Virus record (IMG/VR): IMGVR_UViG_3300027706_000002 | Span: 2,372-66,371 of that record | DNA length: 64,000 nucleotides | Direction: 5' to 3' (one strand) | From: a virus | The notes under the pieces: generated by a model | Database searches by the model: none | The model's input: the letters and a program-made list of their open reading frames with translations, nothing else | What the model was told of the DNA's origin: nothing | Shown here: positions 30,083-53,634 of the stretch, piece after piece | How the letters are laid out: each line of letters opens with the position of its first letter | Numbering within the stretch: the first letter of the stretch is position 1 | Program-made: the position numbers and the translations under genes

Positions 30083-30676
30083 TTAACTCGCCCAGCGATA
30101 GAGCTTCCTGCGGAGATGGGCTAGTGCTTTTTGTTCTTGGAGTTTAATCGCTTGCCGAGACAGACCTATCTCGCGGCCGATTTCGGCCCCGTTTCGATAC
30201 TTGTAATAGATCTCTTCCAAGAGAGCTCTTTGCTTCTTGGGAAGTTCTTTAAAGGCTTTCTGTAGAGCCTCTAGAAGCTCGAAGTCCGGATCTTCCTTCG
30301 GTCGAGGAGCCTGAACCATCTCCTCCAAACAAAGATCCTCATTTTCTAGACAGATCTGGTTCGCCAATTCGTTACGACTCTTACGCAGTAACCCATGATT
30401 TTTATTGACATAATTAAGCAAGTGGTTCAAGATACACTTTACCGCAAAGGTACTAAAAGCCACTGGCTTACCTGTTTTCTTACTCGGACGGTGAGGGTCG
30501 TACTGGTCCACGGCCCGAACGAGAGCGAAAGTACCCTCTGCTAAGAGGTCGTCCCAACTACCGATCGTACGAAGCTTCGGATCGCGATCTTTTGCGGGGA
30601 AAGCTCGCCCCGCAATCCAATAAACAAGCGGTAGATTTTCCGTAATCATCCGATCACGTTCCGGACCCTGTTTCAT
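30083..30676 (-). CDS. sigma-70 family sigma factor
   Basis: ENLPLVYWIA, DDL..EG..AL..A...YDP, FSTFA (region 2); EIG...GLSRQAI..Q..AL..LR (region 4). Confidence 0.88.
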   Translation of the reverse strand: MKQGPERDRMITENLPLVYWIAGRAFPAKDRDPKLRTIGSWDDLLAEGTFALVRAVDQYDPHRPSKKTGKPVAFSTFAVKCILNHLLNYVNKNHGLLRKSRNELANQICLENEDLCLEEMVQAPRPKEDPDFELLEALQKAFKELPKKQRALLEEIYYKYRNGAEIGREIGLSRQAIKLQEQKALAHLRRKLYRWAS

Positions 30677-34099: not shown

Positions 34100-34468
34100 C
34101 TAGTATCCTCCCGTCCGTATCCAGGCGACGATTGCGCTGATTGTATCTCGCCAACGAATCGAACGTACCTTGGCCGTGGCTTCCGCTGCTTCCTCTTCGG
34201 GGTTGTAAAGACGTTGCTCGCGAGCTTGCTTTTTGCGGAGACGCTCGGCTGCAGCCTTTCGATCCGCTAACCAGACCTTATCCCCTAACCACTTAATACC
34301 GCCGATAAGCAATTGGGAGATAGCCATGTGTTCGAAGGGATAGCAATATGCCATCATCACACGAATATCCATGGCGGCCGTCCCTTCCCCGGGAGTAGGC
34401 CCCTGGAACCGAGTGGGTTGGGCAAGAGAAACACAGGCTTGTCGCTTATGCTGTGTGTCAACGGCCAT
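34100..34468 (-). CDS. hypothetical protein
   Basis: Overlaps the sigma gene stop; operon position. Confidence 0.55.
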   Translation of the reverse strand: MAVDTQHKRQACVSLAQPTRFQGPTPGEGTAAMDIRVMMAYCYPFEHMAISQLLIGGIKWLGDKVWLADRKAAAERLRKKQAREQRLYNPEEEAAEATAKVRSIRWRDTISAIVAWIRTGGY

Positions 34469-35057
34469 GAGAGTCTTTATCCTTTAAGGCCCGAAGCTTC
34501 CGCAGACCTTTCCACATCTTATTCCAGATTCTTTGCTCTTTACAACCTAACTCCTGGGCGATATCTCTACAGCGACGTCCCCGGATCCAGTGTTCGTAGA
34601 GTAACCAAGCCGTCTCTCGATCAGGTAATTGTTCGAGAAGCGTCGCGATCTCTTCTTTTACCTGATAAACCTTAAAAGGATCTTCCGGCTGCTCGAGTTC
34701 GTTGTTGAGTTTCTCCCAGGAAACCCGCGAGGAAGCCTCTCGATAGCTCGTTCGACTGCAGCGTATCAGGCCGCTGTGTTGTCGTATCCAATCGAAGATA
34801 GCTCCTTGCGCTCGGAGACCCAGGTAGGTTTTCGGTTGGCTTCGGGCCGGATTATAGCGTGGAATTCCGTCCAAGATTCCCAGTACAGCCACATGGACCA
34901 GGTCTTCCAACTCACAGTCCATCCGCTTTCGACTGCGTCGAACCTTGTGGGCGAGAAGACGAGCGAGAGGGAGATAATACTCACACAACCTACGGCGAGA
35001 TTCGGCTGTGGGTTGTCGGAAATATTCCTCCCATAGTCGCTTTTCTTCCTCTGTCAT
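34458..35057 (-). CDS. sigma-70 family sigma factor (FliA/WhiG-like)
   Basis: LW..Y......R..L...YLPL, EDL......G....I.RY.P, TY...R..GAI.D..R; region 4 DIAQELG; GAGGAGG RBS. Confidence 0.85.
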   Translation of the reverse strand: MTEEEKRLWEEYFRQPTAESRRRLCEYYLPLARLLAHKVRRSRKRMDCELEDLVHVAVLGILDGIPRYNPARSQPKTYLGLRAQGAIFDWIRQHSGLIRCSRTSYREASSRVSWEKLNNELEQPEDPFKVYQVKEEIATLLEQLPDRETAWLLYEHWIRGRRCRDIAQELGCKEQRIWNKMWKGLRKLRALKDKDSHGR

Positions 35058-35067
35058 CGTCCTCCTC

Positions 35068-35823
35068 TTACTGGAACTTTCCTCGGGTGAAGAGAGTTCC
35101 ATCGTCGCTCACCGAAGCAGCGGCCACTACCGTCGCCCCGTTATCCGCGTAGACCGTCTGAACGGCTGCCGTTTGCGTGATCTTATTGCGAGCAAGCATA
35201 CTAAGCCATACAATCTTGTCTCGTAAGGTATCGTTCGCGGTCGGTGGAGCCGCTAGTTCACCGTTCGTATCGACCACGAGAGCGTTGTACGCTTGTAGCA
35301 TCCGTGCGCCGGCTTGCGGAAGTACATAAGGACCGGGCAGGTTGGTGCTCCAGACCGCGTCTGCGATATCCGTCGGCGTTAGGCTACACAAGGTATAGCC
35401 GACAGTGCCGATCGCGTAGTTGACGCAATCCAGGGTGGTATTGAGGATCTCGTCGACGATCGCCTGGGTAGCTCCGAGATCCACTTCGATCGCCACCGGA
35501 GCCATGTTGGATGCCCCGGAGAAGCTGAAGGCTACGCTCTTCGCTCCAGAGGCTAAAGCTGCGTTCGGCGGACAAAACTGATACCAACCCGCCATAAACG
35601 AATCGCTGATAACCTTGAAGCCTCCTGAAGTGTAGGTGCCCAAGGTCATATTGTTTAGCGTTACCTGCGTCGGGGTCGTATCGGTGTCCCGATGGTAATA
35701 ACAGATAAGCCCTGGACTCGTGTTAGAGAGACCTGTGAGACCTGAACCGTCGGTAACGGAACTATTCTGGATGAATAGGTGCCAGATCTCGTTCAGCGAT
35801 CCCGGTCTGCGTATCAGCTTCAC
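35068..35823 (-). CDS. putative virion structural protein
   Basis: Thr/Ser-rich; IADAVW and SDDGT..TRG motifs seen in phage structural proteins. Confidence 0.5.
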   Translation of the reverse strand: MKLIRRPGSLNEIWHLFIQNSSVTDGSGLTGLSNTSPGLICYYHRDTDTTPTQVTLNNMTLGTYTSGGFKVISDSFMAGWYQFCPPNAALASGAKSVAFSFSGASNMAPVAIEVDLGATQAIVDEILNTTLDCVNYAIGTVGYTLCSLTPTDIADAVWSTNLPGPYVLPQAGARMLQAYNALVVDTNGELAAPPTANDTLRDKIVWLSMLARNKITQTAAVQTVYADNGATVVAAASVSDDGTLFTRGKFQ

Positions 35824-47053: not shown

Positions 47054-47293
47054 TTAAAGAGATCCATGTAGTTGTTGTTTCGCTCGTTCGATTTCCAGGT
47101 ACTTTTCCAGATAATGCTTGGCTTTTTCCAGGTCTTCGATACCTCCTTTCTTCTTCCATCGACAGATGTACTTCGTGATGACTCCTTGAAAGTAATCGAG
47201 ATCGTTGGCCGCTACGAAGTCCCAGTGTTGTATGGTCATCGTTTGGTAGTGATTACCGCCTACCTGTCGATCGTTGGCGGCTTTCGAGCTCAT
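47054..47293 (-). CDS. DUF3310 (SaV-like) protein
   Basis: QVGG.HY, G...KY..R...KGG.EDL.KA.HYL motifs. Confidence 0.85.
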   Translation of the reverse strand: MSSKAANDRQVGGNHYQTMTIQHWDFVAANDLDYFQGVITKYICRWKKKGGIEDLEKAKHYLEKYLEIERAKQQLHGSL

Positions 47294-48426
47294 GGTATCT
47301 CCTCCTTCTTTTTCTTCGCCTGCAAACGTCGCTCGATCCAGTTGCGGGCTGCGATTTTCCAATCATCGGCTTCGATATTTCTCGTCCAGAGTAGACTCGT
47401 TGCGGAACCTCGCTTGTAGTGCTGGTAGGCTAATAGGAGCGGAAAGGCCACATATCTGAGAAACGGCTCTTTCCATTGTAGTTTTTCAGTATCGAAGACT
47501 TCTCCGGAAAAGACCTCGACGAAGTGTGGAAGTTCTTTTTCGAAAACGACGGGATCTTGTACAAGGGGCACGAAGTTCCAATTAGAGGTTCCGTACCATT
47601 CATCGGATTTTGCGCCTCCTATTTGATACTCCTCGAGCCACTCGAGCGGTTTCCAGTTGTCCAGGTATACATGGAGGTTGTTGGTAAATTGATTGTAGAC
47701 CCCTACCTTGAGCCCCAATCGGGCCGCCAGGTACTCCTGGAGAAAAGAGAAATGTACTGCGTTGGCTCCGAGGGTTCCCCAAATCAGGTCGTTGCTGCGA
47801 TTACAGACAGTAAGGTTGAGATAGGCGGGGACATCGTGGGGCTTTCCCTTGCAGCGAGGACAGGTTTCTACGCTAGAGGAATCTTTTCCTGCACACTCTG
47901 GACAGACTCCGCTTTCCACGGACAAGTAAGCGTGAGTATTACAACAGACGTCCAGACTCCTCTCCACCCAAAGCAGATCATCTTGAACGGACCACATCTG
48001 CAGTACCGCTCGCCGCGAAAACGGATTCTTTTGGAGATGGTCTACCAGGATATCGAGTTGATCGTAGAATTTCGTACCGTTGTATGCGAGAGCTTTTCGC
48101 CAACGGTAGCCGTAAGCTCCGCGTAGCGTGGTTCCATCGTCGGAGTACTGAAGCATGCGCTTATTGTAGCGAGCGAGAGATTGTACATCGTTTCTCCCAG
48201 CGAGCATCCATAACGCTTCGTACAAGTGGAAAAAGGGATTGGCGTCTCGGGCCGCGTTGAAGAGTACCCTTTCCCAAGGTCTACGGTAGGTCACTAGGAC
48301 AGGCTCATCGTAGTAAGCCACCTCACCGTTTCGGCTCGGACCTGTTTCGATCGGGCCGAATCCGCTGAAAAAACAATGGACCAGACGAGCGAACGCGGTG
48401 TTGACGTTGCGGGTGCTTAGCTCCAT
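47290..48426 (-). CDS. thymidylate synthase homolog, probable dUMP hydroxymethylase
   Basis: NPFFH..EALW.L.G, SDDG....GAYG.RW, SRRAVL, DVCCN, RSNDL.WG..GAN (Asn indicates dUMP specificity), NLHVY; clusters with hmdU-processing genes. Confidence 0.82.
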   Translation of the reverse strand: MELSTRNVNTAFARLVHCFFSGFGPIETGPSRNGEVAYYDEPVLVTYRRPWERVLFNAARDANPFFHLYEALWMLAGRNDVQSLARYNKRMLQYSDDGTTLRGAYGYRWRKALAYNGTKFYDQLDILVDHLQKNPFSRRAVLQMWSVQDDLLWVERSLDVCCNTHAYLSVESGVCPECAGKDSSSVETCPRCKGKPHDVPAYLNLTVCNRSNDLIWGTLGANAVHFSFLQEYLAARLGLKVGVYNQFTNNLHVYLDNWKPLEWLEEYQIGGAKSDEWYGTSNWNFVPLVQDPVVFEKELPHFVEVFSGEVFDTEKLQWKEPFLRYVAFPLLLAYQHYKRGSATSLLWTRNIEADDWKIAARNWIERRLQAKKKKEEIP

Positions 48427-49013
48427 GAGGGAACCTCCTTTTTGTAGACGCACGCCGTTTTCTCCAGGACTTCGCTGAGCCTGGCGAGGGGATTGTCTTG
48501 GTACGGATGCTCGGAATTGTGGTGGCGGGGAAAGACGATTCCTTGTCCTCCGGCGGCGCAAAAGCGTTCAATGTTCGTATCTCGATCATCTATCAGGATC
48601 ACCGATTCTCCGGCGAAGATCTCCTTGTGAGGAGTGATGGCGAAGCGATCGAAGCGAATTCCGAAGAAACGCTTGAGCCAACGGACTTTTCCACAGTAGC
48701 TACTCACGCAACTCGAAGGTGCGCTGATTACATGCCAATCTTCTGTAATTTCTTGGGTAAGAGCCAAAACTCCTCGAGCCCAAGGTGTCGGCTCTAATTT
48801 CGCCCAGAACATCTCCGAACCGTTGATTCGATCCCAAAATTCTGCTTCTAGTAGGGGCCGCTCTCTTCCTAAAGCTCGGCTCAGTGGCGGAATCAAGTCC
48901 CAGACTCCTTTTTCCCAATGTCGGAGTACCTCTTCCTTCCGCACTCCCCAAGCTCCGCAGGCTGCCCCGACGAAGTCACACAAGACCTCGTCTAGATCGA
49001 GTAGAATTCTCAC
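48417..49013 (-). CDS. HAD-family 5'(3')-deoxyribonucleotidase
   Basis: LDLDEVL.DF, SAP, GK..W, LIDD...N motifs. Confidence 0.85.
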   Translation of the reverse strand: MRILLDLDEVLCDFVGAACGAWGVRKEEVLRHWEKGVWDLIPPLSRALGRERPLLEAEFWDRINGSEMFWAKLEPTPWARGVLALTQEITEDWHVISAPSSCVSSYCGKVRWLKRFFGIRFDRFAITPHKEIFAGESVILIDDRDTNIERFCAAGGQGIVFPRHHNSEHPYQDNPLARLSEVLEKTACVYKKEVPSWS

Positions 49014-49074
49014 GGTCTTAACTCCTGAACTAATTCGTGGTTACAACTATTTTCAAAAATTTTTACAAATGGGC

Positions 49075-49102
49075 TTGTATTTAAATCCCACCCTATTATA
49101 AT
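49075..49102 (+). promoter_or_regulatory. sigma70-type promoter with AT-rich UP element
   Basis: TTGTAT-16 nt-TATAAT, preceded by TTTTCAAAAATTTTT; upstream of 49150. Confidence 0.7.
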
Positions 49103-49149
49103 GTACAGTAGTCGGAGATTACTAGTACACGAGAAAAGGAGCCTCCCCG

Positions 49150-49401
49150 ATGAACGACACCGTAGCGAGTCTGGTCCACCTGTACAAAACTGCCGCTGAT
49201 CTGGAGCGCAGCGAGCAAGAGTTTCAAGACACTCTCGGCCTGCTCGACAGCCTGAACAAGCCAGCCTTACTAACTTTGACTCGCCAGATGAACCTGGTCC
49301 TACCTTCGCGGATCTCCACCGAGCTCCTGCGCATCCGTATCCGCGAGCGGATCCGCAACCGTCGCGGTATGGCGTTACGTTGCGAGATGTTGGGTTACTA
49401 A
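49150..49401 (+). CDS. hypothetical protein (putative early gene)
   Basis: AAGGAG RBS; downstream of a consensus-like promoter. Confidence 0.7.
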   Translation: MNDTVASLVHLYKTAADLERSEQEFQDTLGLLDSLNKPALLTLTRQMNLVLPSRISTELLRIRIRERIRNRRGMALRCEMLGY

Positions 49402-49421
49402 CCAGGAAGGAGCGATTCCCC

Positions 49422-49457
49422 TTGAATCTTTCAACGACCTGCGGTACAATCCGCAGG
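49422..49457 (+). promoter_or_regulatory. sigma70-type promoter whose -10 box sits inside a 7-bp inverted repeat
   Basis: TTGAAT-17 nt-TACAAT; CCTGCGG-TACAAT-CCGCAGG. Confidence 0.6.
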
Positions 49458-49460
49458 GAT

Positions 49461-49533
49461 GGGCCCTGTTGATCCACCTCCCCGATTCGGTAGGGCCTGG
49501 AAACGCTGGGAGTTCCAGCGGCTAACGGATCAA
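49461..49533 (+). ncRNA. HDV-like self-cleaving ribozyme
   Basis: P1 GGGCCCU/AGGGCCU (G1-U wobble); P2 UUGAUCC/GGAUCAA; P3 ACC/GGU; L3 UCCCCGAUUC; P1.1 CC/GG; P4 CGCUGG/CCAGCG; J4/2 GCUAAC with putative catalytic C49522. All elements are in HDV order. Confidence 0.85.
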
Positions 49534-49550
49534 ATACAAAGGAGTCTCGC

Positions 49551-49943
49551 ATGCCAGTTTCTACCAAGTCCACTTCCTCTTCCTCCAAGAAAACCCACAC
49601 GGAGAACGGCAACGGCCATCGTGGACGGGCACGTAAGGAGGGTCTGCGATCTCCGCAGATTCGTATTCTACAAGCTCTCTCCAAGGCCAAAAGTCCTATG
49701 ACCCGCTCGGAGATCGCAGCGAAGTCCGGAGTCGATCCCGCTTGGTTCACGTCCTACATCGGGGCGCAAGACGAGCTTCGTATGAAGGAACTGGAGCGGA
49801 TCCGGGGGTTCAAGTCCCTGATCGCTCTGGACTACGTGCGTCGCGAGCGTCACGACGTTGAGGGTCGGGATACCGATCTCCACCAGATCACCGTCCAAGG
49901 CCGCAAAGCTCTGCAAAAGGCTCTACAAGCGGCGGAAGCGTAG
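49551..49943 (+). CDS. winged-helix DNA-binding protein
   Basis: QIRILQAL.....PMTRSEIA..SG HTH and IT..GRKAL wing; AAGGAG RBS. Confidence 0.7.
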   Translation: MPVSTKSTSSSSKKTHTENGNGHRGRARKEGLRSPQIRILQALSKAKSPMTRSEIAAKSGVDPAWFTSYIGAQDELRMKELERIRGFKSLIALDYVRRERHDVEGRDTDLHQITVQGRKALQKALQAAEA

Positions 49944-49988
49944 TTCCTCGGTTTCCACGTTCCTTGGAGTCCTACTTGGAGTCCTACG

Positions 49989-50186
49989 ATGCAACTCCAC
50001 ATCGATACCCGGATGATTCGCAACCAAGGCCGAAGAGCCTATCGGGCTTGTGTGCTTGACCGCGATTCCCTGGAGGAGATCTACACTACTCCGCGTAGCT
50101 ATCCCACGGCCCAAGACGCTTCTGACGTGGCTTGGGATTGGGTCCAGGAGAACTATCCCTTCGCGTCCGTGACTACGGAGGACTGA
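49989..50186 (+). CDS. small hypothetical protein
   Basis: Duplicated CTTGGAGTCCTA RBS region upstream; terminator downstream. Confidence 0.65.
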   Translation: MQLHIDTRMIRNQGRRAYRACVLDRDSLEEIYTTPRSYPTAQDASDVAWDWVQENYPFASVTTED

Positions 50187-50225
50187 GCCTCCTCTCCTCT
50201 CCTCTCCTCTCTGGAGCTATCTCTC

Positions 50226-50267
50226 CTCCCCGTCCTCTCCTCCCCGAGAGGACGGGGAGTTTCGTTT
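50226..50267 (+). terminator. intrinsic terminator closing the plus-strand cassette
   Basis: 14-bp perfect stem CTCCCCGTCCTCTC/GAGAGGACGGGGAG followed by TTTCGTTT. Confidence 0.85.
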
Positions 50268-50382
50268 AGACCTAACGCTCTCCTATCCTTCCCCCTAACG
50301 CTTCTCCTTGGCTAGGATCGTCTAGGACGAACGCGAACTCCTTCGTTGTGGGGTGGGTCAATTCCCTAGACGATCGCCCCAC

Positions 50383-51423
50383 CTACCACAAGCCTGCAAG
50401 TTTGCCGGCCCGATAGAGCCTTTGGACGAGCCGAGATCGGCCGAAGCGAGCCAGAGAGCGGCGGCAGGCCGCGATATCCTCACCGACATGGTAGCGTCCC
50501 CGAGTATGCGCCTCCCACTTGCAGAGGATCGTCTCGGCTTCCTGGACGTTGAGGGGACGGTCCTCCCTCGGAGGAGCCTTACGGCCGGATTGCCCTCGAA
50601 GGACTCTCCGCACCGCCCACAGCCCTAGATCGGCGGGGAACTCCCCCTTGCCGGTCTCCTGTCTCCACAGCCGAGCGGCCCCTTCGAGGGGTGAGGAGTA
50701 GAGGGCAAAGACAGACTCCGGAGGAAAGCGGACGCGAGCCAGTCCTAACCGCTCGAGCATATCAGAGGCCTTGAAGCCGATCCAGGGGCCGAATCCGATC
50801 CAGCCCTGGACGTGCCGGAGAACCTCCACTAGACTCTTCGCCGTCTCTTCCCCGGTTAGCAAGGGTCCGAACAGCCTGTCGATCCCTTGCTGCCTCAGCC
50901 AAGTAGAGGACCGCACGGCGATCTGTCCTCGATAGTGCCGACGTTCCTTCCCGCGAGGATAGTAAGCGGAGCGGGCTGCACGACAGAAGGCTCTCCAGTA
51001 GTGAGGCTCCTCGTGCTCCGCGATCCAACTTGCGGTTCCTATATCGTAATAGGACCAGTAAGCGAGAAGCCAACGACTACACAGTGCTAGGTCCCTCGAG
51101 AATCCGGCTGTATGGAGAAGTACATAGACAGGATCGAGATCCCGAGTCTCCAGGAGCTTCCGACCGAAAGCGTCTACGTCAAGGTGAGCCAAGCGAGGAT
51201 GGTAGGCACCGCCTGCTCTACGCTCTTGCGGTAACAGGGTACTCCCTTTTCCAGAAGACGGAGTCTGGCCTTGTAGATCGTTTGTACTCGGTGTACCGTA
51301 TTGTGGGGATTGAGTGGTTTGTCGTTGCCGACGCTGGCCCTTCTTCCTTGAATCCTTTGTAGGCATGTTTCGACTGCTGTAGTCAGAAATAACACGCGAA
51401 GTTGTGGAATCCTGGCGGACCAC
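50383..51423 (-). CDS. amino acid:DNA transferase (aGPT-Pplase2 family); start uncertain
   Basis: FG..LL.T.DLDPVY, WL.AYW.YY, PRG.ERRH.RG, FGPWI.FK..DMLER, QE.ETILCKW motifs. Confidence 0.82.
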   Translation of the reverse strand: MVRQDSTTSRVISDYSSRNMPTKDSRKKGQRRQRQTTQSPQYGTPSTNDLQGQTPSSGKGSTLLPQERRAGGAYHPRLAHLDVDAFGRKLLETRDLDPVYVLLHTAGFSRDLALCSRWLLAYWSYYDIGTASWIAEHEEPHYWRAFCRAARSAYYPRGKERRHYRGQIAVRSSTWLRQQGIDRLFGPLLTGEETAKSLVEVLRHVQGWIGFGPWIGFKASDMLERLGLARVRFPPESVFALYSSPLEGAARLWRQETGKGEFPADLGLWAVRRVLRGQSGRKAPPREDRPLNVQEAETILCKWEAHTRGRYHVGEDIAACRRSLARFGRSRLVQRLYRAGKLAGLW

Positions 51424-51710
51424 TTGACGTCTTCACTCAAGAGTAAACCTTCGCAAAGCACCTTGGGAAAATCTCGGCGGACCTTTTCTAGTAAACGGAA
51501 GACTTCGGCCGCAGAACCGATTGTATCACAACCGCCGCAAGGAGTCTCGTAGTGTCCTAAGATAGCCATCGGGCCATCGAGTTGGTAGTAGTACAATGGT
51601 TTTCTACGGCCGGGGACGTAACGCGGTTCCCACCTTCCTAGAGCTTCCATGACTCTTCGAACCACGGTGCTTTTGCCAGATCCGGAAGTACCGCGTACTT
51701 GTATAATCAC
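51174..51710 (-). CDS. P-loop nucleotide kinase of DNA hypermodification clusters
   Basis: RGTSGSGKST, LGHYE..CGGCDT, EGLL motifs. Confidence 0.82.
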   Translation of the reverse strand: MIIQVRGTSGSGKSTVVRRVMEALGRWEPRYVPGRRKPLYYYQLDGPMAILGHYETPCGGCDTIGSAAEVFRLLEKVRRDFPKVLCEGLLLSEDVKWSARIPQLRVLFLTTAVETCLQRIQGRRASVGNDKPLNPHNTVHRVQTIYKARLRLLEKGVPCYRKSVEQAVPTILAWLTLT

Positions 51711-53191: not shown

Positions 53192-53634
53192 AACCTGCGG
53201 ATCTCCTGTTTGATGGCCCGTTCTAGCTCCGCCTCATCCCGGAACGGTCTGGGGTTTTGCCATAGTTTTAGAGCCAATCGCATACCGGCCCTCCTTTCGG
53301 GACTTCTGGTAAGCTCCAAAGGACTTCCTGGCCGATAAGCCTCTTTATGGGACTCCGTAGTACCAATCAGGTTCATCAGACCTTTGCGGTACTTCTCGGC
53401 GGAGACCCATTGCGGACGACATCTGTAGCAAACCTGACGGAGAAACGGTATGACTTTTTGTATAAACTCGAGGGCCTCTTTAATGGTGGACACGAGGTTG
53501 TGGGCGATAAGGGTCCTCCCCATGTTCTTGACCAGGGTGAGAGTAATTGATTTTATCTGTTGCGTTTCAGGCTGTACACGAGTCGGGTGTAGACCGTCGG
53601 TGCGGTAGTTCTTGTAAGGCTTTCTTGCGTTCAT
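53179..53634 (-). CDS. hypothetical protein
   Basis: Overlapping start/stop with both neighbours. Confidence 0.5.
   Translation of the reverse strand: MNARKPYKNYRTDGLHPTRVQPETQQIKSITLTLVKNMGRTLIAHNLVSTIKEALEFIQKVIPFLRQVCYRCRPQWVSAEKYRKGLMNLIGTTESHKEAYRPGSPLELTRSPERRAGMRLALKLWQNPRPFRDEAELERAIKQEIRRLWNR

Follow-up and report, generated by a model that had tools for sequence, protein, structure and literature searches.

A candidate HDV-like ribozyme between an upstream hairpin and the ribosome-binding site of a phage winged helix-turn-helix gene

Why should a phage carry what looks like a self-cleaving RNA immediately in front of the ribosome-binding site (RBS) of a small gene, and is the element a ribozyme at all? 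The locus that raises this question belongs to IMG/VR record IMGVR_UViG_3300027706_000002, a complete virus of 66,371 bp with terminal repeats; the window analyzed here, 64,000 nt corresponding to positions 2,372–66,371, is nearly all of that record. On the plus strand of the window, the 73 nt at 49461–49533 contain all elements of the nested double pseudoknot of the hepatitis delta virus (HDV) ribozyme, in canonical order and with perfectly paired helices at the sequence level. In sense orientation, the element lies in the intergenic region between a short open reading frame (ORF83) and a gene for a winged helix-turn-helix (wHTH) protein, which is followed by ORF65. Judging from the sequence, we consider it probable, although well short of certain, that 49461–49533 is a genuine HDV-like self-cleaving ribozyme and acts as a processing site within an ORF83-wHTH-ORF65 transcript.

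The element had been proposed in a sequence-only reading of the same DNA, and its sequence and anatomy (P1, P2, P3, UCC..CG, GG, P4, and GCUAAC) matched exactly when read again. Its parts are as follows.

49461–49533, plus strand: candidate HDV-like ribozyme, 73 nt (sequence reading, inverted-repeat search, Rfam alignment, our own descriptor, and segment table)
49461–49467 and 49492–49498, plus strand: P1, 7/7 paired, including a G49461-U49498 wobble
49468, plus strand: J1/2, a single G
49469–49475 and 49527–49533, plus strand: P2, 7/7 Watson-Crick, found independently as inverted repeat I18
49476–49478 and 49489–49491, plus strand: P3, ACC/GGU, 3 bp
49479–49488, plus strand: L3, 10 nt, UCCCCGAUUC, with the motif UCCCCG present
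49499–49500, plus strand: P1.1 GG, after P1 and able to pair with two C of L3
49504–49509, loop 49510–49514, and 49515–49520, plus strand: P4, CGCUGG-GAGUU-CCAGCG, 6 bp with a 5-nt loop
49521–49526, plus strand: J4/2, GCUAAC
49522, plus strand: putative catalytic C, the first C of J4/2 (Rfam alignment and segment table; role assigned from the family)
49460/49461, plus strand: predicted scissile bond, U49460-G49461, from the HDV-like fold

HDV-like folds are cleaved 5' of the first P1 nucleotide. The nucleotide at position −1 would be U49460, and U is reported to be the best −1 nucleotide for the genomic HDV ribozyme (PMC1874588). C49522, within GCUAAC, lines up with CUAA both in the Rfam consensus and in 13 other elements. 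In the segment table, the junctions are those of class members: P3 is ACC/GGT, L3 begins in the same way, P1 is followed by TGGAAAC, and P2 is preceded by GGCTAAC; the sequences of P1, P2, and P4 vary freely between members, which were chosen for pairing.

Chance expectation was assessed with a descriptor of our own that specifies P1 paired at 7/7 positions, a perfect P2 of at least 5 bp, P3, an L3 of TCCNCG plus 1–4 nt, GG, and CNRA. Its single match within the window was 49461–49533. Dinucleotide-shuffled copies of the whole window were matched in 1/300 and 1/2965 cases (2 matches in 3265), and no match with an additional P4 of at least 4 bp was found in the 2965 shuffles. Elsewhere, among 147 exact matches to a core pattern with a long L3 of at least 10 nt (26 viral and 121 in genome contigs), none combined P1 paired at 7/7 positions with a perfect P2. 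A pattern built on the L3 start of the window element (CCTCCCCG) was present in 5 viral and at least 119 metagenome stretches, at least 124 together; among the matches listed, L266 alone was clearly paired (P1 7/7, P2 6/7), and its setting differs from that of the window in being 3' of an ORF and 5' of a terminator-like hairpin.

A search with HDV-like models, the check named in the sequence-only reading, returned a match to the HDV family (RF00094) at 49459–49534 over the full model, with 32.0 bits and an E-value of 0.0044 (301 nt against 4227 families at a permissive threshold); rescaled to one family and both window strands, the E-value is ~2e-4 by our own arithmetic. The score lies below the Rfam gathering cut-off of 50 bits for RF00094 (44 bits for RF02682, the Faecalibacterium prausnitzii type), and the RF00094 model scores neither P2 nor P1.1. 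Sub-threshold scores were likewise obtained for five of six phage HDV-like elements compared with RF02682 (the tRNA-adjacent L170, 31.1 bits; L122, 31.7; L148, 37.8; L150, 27.3; L266, 29.6), and only L118 passed, with 50 bits. Most of the phage HDV-like elements scored in this way thus fall below the cut-off, and a sub-threshold score is normal for the class. The HDV record (L152, 1682 bases) gave 106 and 64 bits, one per strand, the antigenomic strand scoring 63.7 against RF00094. HDV is the best Rfam model for the window element, unlike the other phage examples, for which the best model is the F. prausnitzii type. The resemblance to the HDV core that had been noticed by eye is therefore borne out by the RF00094 match and by P3 and GGCUAA, which are identical to those of the antigenomic-strand ribozyme of L152. 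One other RF00094 candidate, 53213–53278, was the sole hit of the first-pass profile scan (16 bits, E 0.27) and was discarded, as it had no HDV features by eye.

Two overlapping features directly precede the element.

49438–49457, plus strand: perfect 7-bp inverted repeat CCTGCGG / CCGCAGG with a 6-nt loop, TACAAT (I17, unique in the window)
49422–49450, plus strand: sigma-70-like match TTGAAT-17-TACAAT, 9/12 positions

As RNA, 49438–49457 is a hairpin that ends 3 nt 5' of the predicted cleavage site. It is present in the minimum free energy fold of 49430–49580, the 40-mer upstream of the cleavage site has a folding energy of −15.0 kcal/mol (z −3.74), and an arm this long occurred in 19/500 shuffles of the promoter region. 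We surveyed fully paired HDV-like ribozymes from one viral locus set, together with L266, and grouped them by upstream flank into 17 families. ARAGORN called a tRNA upstream in 6/17; five of these tRNAs end at the cleavage site, and the sixth ends 10 nt short of it. Another 2/17 have a T-arm-like flank with neither an ARAGORN call nor a simple hairpin. All of the remaining families (9/9) have a perfect stem of 6–12 bp ending 0–4 nt before the cleavage site.

Families with an upstream hairpin: L118:1466–1483, L122:1446–1481, L181, L175, L231, L207, L203, L266:972–986, and L148

Counting the two T-arm-like families as non-tRNA gives 9/11 (viral and metagenome). A T run follows the upstream hairpin in one family only (L122). 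The nine families plus the window were compared with 8000 random positions in the same sequences.

Stem of at least 6 bp: 10/10 families, 15% of controls
Stem of at least 7 bp: 8/10 families, 7.7% of controls
Stem of at least 8 bp: 6/10 families, 3.6% of controls
Stem of at least 10 bp: 4/10 families, 0.9% of controls

These data suggest that phage HDV-like ribozymes always cut just past a stable helix, either a tRNA or a hairpin. An upstream hairpin, P(−1), is reported to keep flanking sequence from misfolding the genomic HDV ribozyme and so to allow co-transcriptional cleavage (PMC6097654); the words "hairpin" and "stem-loop" do not occur in the main text of the theta-ribozyme report (PMC10879173). 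A hairpin rule of this kind implies that transcription normally enters from upstream, and it is on this ground that we read the element as a processing site. The sequence-only reading had offered two roles, stabilization of the mRNA or uncoupling from the upstream gene, and uncoupling is the better half of that proposal since the hairpin points to transcripts arriving from upstream.

Two further observations were made on the surveyed elements. The upstream hairpin loops of L148 (1455–1483) and L266 (960–987), which are otherwise unrelated, are near-identical (GCATGAC..TAAACTGC) and may represent a conserved element. In L118 (region 1484–1641), the commonest viral family found, the ribozyme lies 4 nt 5' of a tRNA gene (1569–1641) and not after one, and a second HDV-like match (1713–1784, 34 bits) follows ~70 nt past the tRNA.

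The gene layout would provide a transcript for the element to process. Nearly all long ORFs of the window are on the minus strand, and the ribozyme sits within a rare plus-strand unit whose order is ORF83, hairpin, ribozyme, MarR-like wHTH gene, ORF65, and terminator-like hairpin.

49097–49102, plus strand: TATAAT hexamer, possible −10 of the unit, in an AT-rich divergent region (picked by eye; weak −35; not in the promoter scan)
49150–49401, plus strand: ORF83, first gene of the unit, with AAAGGAG upstream; no Pfam or PHROG family at threshold
49539–49544, plus strand: Shine-Dalgarno (SD) sequence AAGGAG, 5 nt past the ribozyme; the ATG (49551) follows after 6 nt
49551–49943, plus strand: wHTH gene, 130 amino acids, encoding a basic disordered N-terminal tail and a MarR-like winged helix-turn-helix
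49989–50186, plus strand: ORF65, putative coding ORF and last of the unit, without a Pfam or PHROG family match
50226–50259, plus strand: intrinsic-terminator-like 14-bp hairpin (I1) followed by TTTCGTTT, likely the end of the unit (terminator and inverted-repeat scans)

The terminator-like site at 50226–50259 is the only one in 48900–50500; none separates ORF83 from the ribozyme. The AAGGAG that had been placed 5 nt past the element is indeed there, and the statement that no tRNA is adjacent can be widened, as ARAGORN found none in the 64-kb window. A minus-strand ORF over the ribozyme (49010–49750) is of low complexity, matches nothing, and was rejected as spurious. Just before the terminator-like hairpin, 50190–50214 holds four to five tandem TCCTC units, each of which can pair with the GAGAGGA arm of that hairpin (I19–I21) to give alternative stems.

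The fold at the sequence level, its statistical rarity, the gene order, and the hairpin are shown by the sequence itself. In the mechanism that we infer from them, the RNA would fold into the nested double pseudoknot during transcription, C49522 would serve as general acid, and the chain would be cut at U49460/G49461. A 2',3'-cyclic phosphate would terminate the ORF83 mRNA, which would then end in hairpin-GAU, 3 nt past the 7-bp hairpin; the wHTH-ORF65 mRNA would start with a 5'-OH G inside the folded ribozyme, 5 nt before the RBS. Cleavage would thus separate the fates of the upstream and regulator messages, and the regulator message would have the same structured 5' end whichever start had given rise to it, a distant upstream one or the promoter-like site within the hairpin. 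Whether the folded 5'-OH end would also stabilize the message probably depends on the RNases of the host. A broader proposal, which we regard as possible but doubtful, is that the common job of phage HDV-like ribozymes is to cut after a stable helix, be it a tRNA acceptor stem or a hairpin, and that this job has here been built into the leader of a conserved MarR-like gene: with the −10 box in the hairpin loop, two transcription starts would be trimmed to a single 5'-OH, pseudoknot-capped mRNA, the upstream end would be hairpin-protected, and the long unstructured leader of the relatives would have been replaced.

The promoter-like site also allows a simpler account, in which the wHTH mRNA starts at ~49457, the ribozyme merely clips a 3–5 nt triphosphate leader to give a 5'-OH, pseudoknot-capped mRNA, and the palindrome is a DNA operator. 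Such a role is compatible with processing of a longer transcript, and it is only as the sole role that we consider it unlikely. TACAAT (49445–49450) ends 10 nt before G49461, exactly the spacing given in the sequence-only reading, and the chance of a match in that 35-nt slot is ~0.005 (own arithmetic, from ~0.5 per 3.2 kb on both strands). Among eight viral contigs that encode wHTH relatives, seven have a sigma-70-like match 50–118 nt before the start codon, compared with 100 nt in the window, and the relatives' gene has no ORF83 beside it and is flanked by minus-strand genes only. There is precedent in L1Tc, whose 5' end is reported to combine a promoter with an HDV-like ribozyme (PMC3383444). 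However, the match covers only 9/12 positions and, although it is the only one in 48900–50500, shuffles of the region average 0.5, so the −10 box of the earlier reading is exact in spacing and not enriched over chance. The same TACAAT doubles as the loop of the 7-bp hairpin, and hairpins of this type precede all nine other non-tRNA families, an arrangement that is sensible only if the hairpin is transcribed. Support for the palindrome as a conserved operator was also lacking, as inverted repeats in the relatives' promoters were at chance level. Among the sequencing runs that contain this DNA, none was an RNA run, which counts neither for nor against a start here. The promoter-like site is nonetheless better placed than chance, in a position like that of the relatives' promoters, and may be real as well as the processing site.

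Several results weigh against a functional processing site. No family reached its Rfam gathering score anywhere in the 64-kb window, RF02682 had no match at E<=10 in the 301-nt stretch with the ribozyme, and the first-pass profile scan of the record skipped 49461–49533 altogether. Nested folding was unremarkable (z −0.87), and it lengthens P1 with five weak pairs in competition with P2 and P3. L3 is 10 nt long here, compared with 7–9 nt in the other fully paired elements found, and a complete IMG/VR scan for an L3 of at least 10 nt gave 26 pattern matches with none paired; an L3 of this length could slow or abolish catalysis. No covariation was obtainable: the element has the same sequence in contigs of four metagenome studies (soil and mine), leaving no variation with which to test pairing. 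An HDV-like element was present within 1.5 kb of the wHTH gene in 0/8 relatives' loci (Rfam E<=5 and a loose descriptor). Finally, co-transcription with ORF83 is argued from a −10 hexamer chosen by eye and from the missing terminator.

The element might instead be a look-alike or a dead relic, with HDV-like pairing by chance or by descent and no self-cleavage, and at most an ordinary structured leader. The sub-threshold Rfam score, the lack of demonstrated conservation or covariation, and an L3 length without precedent among the paired elements found would all fit, as would the rate of ~6e-4 descriptor matches per shuffled window, at which scanning very many windows would meet some minimal chance matches. 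We nevertheless judge this explanation quite improbable. The element exceeds the minimal descriptor, with a P2 of 7 bp and a P4 of 6 bp, where none of the 2965 shuffles had even 4 bp; its junctions outside the descriptor are identical to those of class members; and it has a U at −1, an intergenic sense position, and the upstream hairpin typical of the class. Its sequence is also unchanged in the four studies, which is weak evidence of maintenance because the whole region is identical. Least probable is a regulated ribozyme, in which a ligand or protein (a metabolite from the neighboring thymidine-hypermodification pathway, perhaps, or the wHTH protein) would switch cleavage, possibly via the enlarged L3, and make the element a sensor instead of a constitutive site: the unusually long L3 and the location in a nucleotide/DNA-modification cluster (thymidylate-synthase-like, NT5C, amino acid:DNA transferase, and kinase genes) are in its favor, but the sequence has neither a sign of an aptamer nor a conserved extra domain, and no relatives are available for comparison.

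The homologous loci help to date the arrangement. The eight viral contigs (L362–L369) encode wHTH relatives of 36–46% identity, and ORF83 is at none of these loci (0/8). A divergent upstream NT5C-like gene is found in 5/8, as in the window, and a convergent downstream pyridoxal phosphate (PLP)-dependent enzyme gene in 6/8. The relatives' leaders align poorly, with a mean column identity of 33%, and Rfam found no known RNA in them. This comparison indicates that the wHTH gene and its long leader are old and that the ribozyme and ORF83 are specific to this lineage. The earlier suggestion of a ribozyme-controlled regulator therefore does not hold as a conserved arrangement, although the identification of a wHTH gene within it does. 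In 5/8 viral loci, the wHTH gene is the lone opposite-strand gene between the NT5C-like gene and the PLP-dependent enzyme gene, and the family may be a conserved component of nucleotide or DNA-modification modules in phages.

Viral contigs searched with the wHTH and amino acid:DNA transferase proteins yielded no close relative of the locus, and a word-index protein search with the wHTH protein found two proteins only, 99% and 100% identical. No variants were present in 49248–50400 in contigs of four runs. ORF83 has relatives P0153 (64%) and P0155 (58%) on contigs of 596 nt and 902 nt, and none in viral contigs. Contigs of two metagenome runs break at 49218–49247, inside ORF83; one contig has G>A at 49204, and one runs into unlike sequence past 49247. 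One database protein (P0154) corresponds to a frameshifted ORF83 that reads through into the first ribozyme bases. Together, these features suggest strain variation or an assembly branch point in ORF83.

HDV-like ribozymes are reported to be abundant in phages, with 58% of occurrences tRNA-associated and a further 526 isolated occurrences that are mostly non-coding, sense to the nearest ORF, and of function stated as unknown (PMC10879173). The statement in the sequence-only reading that phage theta ribozymes are typically tRNA-associated thus describes the majority, but the contrast it drew with this locus was overstated. The window element shares with the theta and isolated ribozymes of gut Caudoviricetes (Kienbeck et al., 2024; PMC10879173) a phage location and the same double-pseudoknot plan, including the ACC/GGT P3, the TCCNCG of L3, GG, and GCTAA(N), and like the isolated ones it is non-coding and sense to its neighbor genes. 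A stable helix lies 5' of the cleavage site in both theta ribozymes and the window, a tRNA in the former and a hairpin in the latter; unlike theta ribozymes, the window element has no tRNA 3' end within 5 nt of the cleavage site. It differs from the theta and isolated set in its full 6-bp P4 with a 5-nt loop and in its L3 of 10 nt instead of 7–9 nt, and it comes from soil and mine metagenomes, whereas that set comes from gut (PMC10879173). Its distance of 5 nt from the RBS is also unusual, as an SD-led ORF lies within 120 nt in only 3/29 distinct viral examples; L122 and L148 likewise have a gene or promoter-like sequence on one side and an SD-led ORF on the other.

Among other members of the family, an F. 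prausnitzii HDV-like ribozyme (RF02682) lies upstream of glmM and, like the window element, occupies a 5' leader in an mRNA of bacterial type, with a proposed effect on downstream expression (PMC6765202); unlike it, the window element has no RF02682 match, and a phage wHTH gene takes the place of a chromosomal metabolic gene. The antigenomic HDV ribozyme (L152) shares the ACC/GGT P3, the first three L3 bases and CG, GG after P1, GGCTAA before P2, and a 7-bp P1 that starts with G and ends in a G-U pair, whereas its P1, P2, and P4 sequences are unrelated, its L3 is 7 nt compared with 10 here, and P4 is much shorter here. HDV uses its ribozymes in rolling-circle RNA processing; the window element would process a phage DNA-encoded mRNA. 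HDV-like ribozymes also free the 5' ends of R2 and L1Tc RNAs from co-transcripts, where the ribozyme is at the very 5' end of a coding RNA and stays on as a folded 5' cap (PMC6765202), as it would here; in L1Tc it also coincides with the promoter (PMC3383444). R2 and L1Tc are, however, eukaryotic mobile elements described as having internal ribosome entry site-like translation, unlike the bacterial RBS 5 nt past the ribozyme here. An Ackermannviridae phage HDV ribozyme, for which a crystal structure, a rate of ~4–5 per min, and loss of activity by a C-to-U change are reported (PMC13635239), is likewise a phage-encoded member of the HDV family with a C in J4/2 (putatively catalytic here); the likeness concerns these features.

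The window element would thus belong to a known ribozyme class, in a position that is uncommon but precedented, and is no new kind of element. What distinguishes it is a core like that of HDV proper, the long L3, a soil phage lineage, and a tidy context. About four in ten phage HDV-like occurrences are not tRNA-adjacent, with function stated as unknown (PMC10879173), and the complete and simple context here (hairpin, predicted site, RBS 5 nt on, small gene, and complete genome) is a convenient case for ribozyme effects on mRNA. The element would add to the class a soil phage lineage remote from any cultured phage and a new L3 length, and the upstream-hairpin regularity, if it holds in larger sets, would unite tRNA-associated and isolated ribozymes under one mechanism.

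For the downstream protein, an AlphaFold model built with 40 relatives had a pLDDT (predicted local distance difference test) of 85.3 and was used in place of a poor single-sequence model. It predicts a three-helix bundle and a beta wing, with helices at 34–45, 52–59, and 63–70 and strands at 96–103 and 106–113. The top Foldseek matches in the PDB were MarR-family regulators (E 2.6e-4, template modeling score ~0.48), and Pfam matches to MarR_2 and HTH_IclR were all sub-threshold. The family has no Pfam model and includes 487 representative relatives at E<=1e-3, with a Lys/Ala/Thr-rich basic tail and a winged helix. A wHTH fold is therefore supported by the model, and the protein is presumably a regulator. 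A tblastn search with the wHTH protein found no match in cultured phages.

The minus-strand genes include portal, terminase, DNA polymerase, and primase, and the DNA polymerase has at most 31% identity to those of cultured phages. Two sigma-factor-like proteins are encoded on the minus strand at 30083–30676 and 34458–35102 (PHROG 351, E 9e-26 and 2e-15), so that part of the phage transcription is probably not from sigma-70-type promoters. The plus-strand unit is flanked on the minus strand by a thymidine-hypermodification-type set (47290–48561, 48417–49013, 50383–51423, and 51174–51710) comprising a thymidylate-synthase-like enzyme, an NT5C-like nucleotidase, an amino acid:DNA transferase, and a kinase that weakly matches 5-hydroxymethyldeoxyuridine (5-hmdU) kinase. 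The only DNA-level matches to cultured phages, 79–81% over 73 bases, are in the amino acid:DNA transferase gene.

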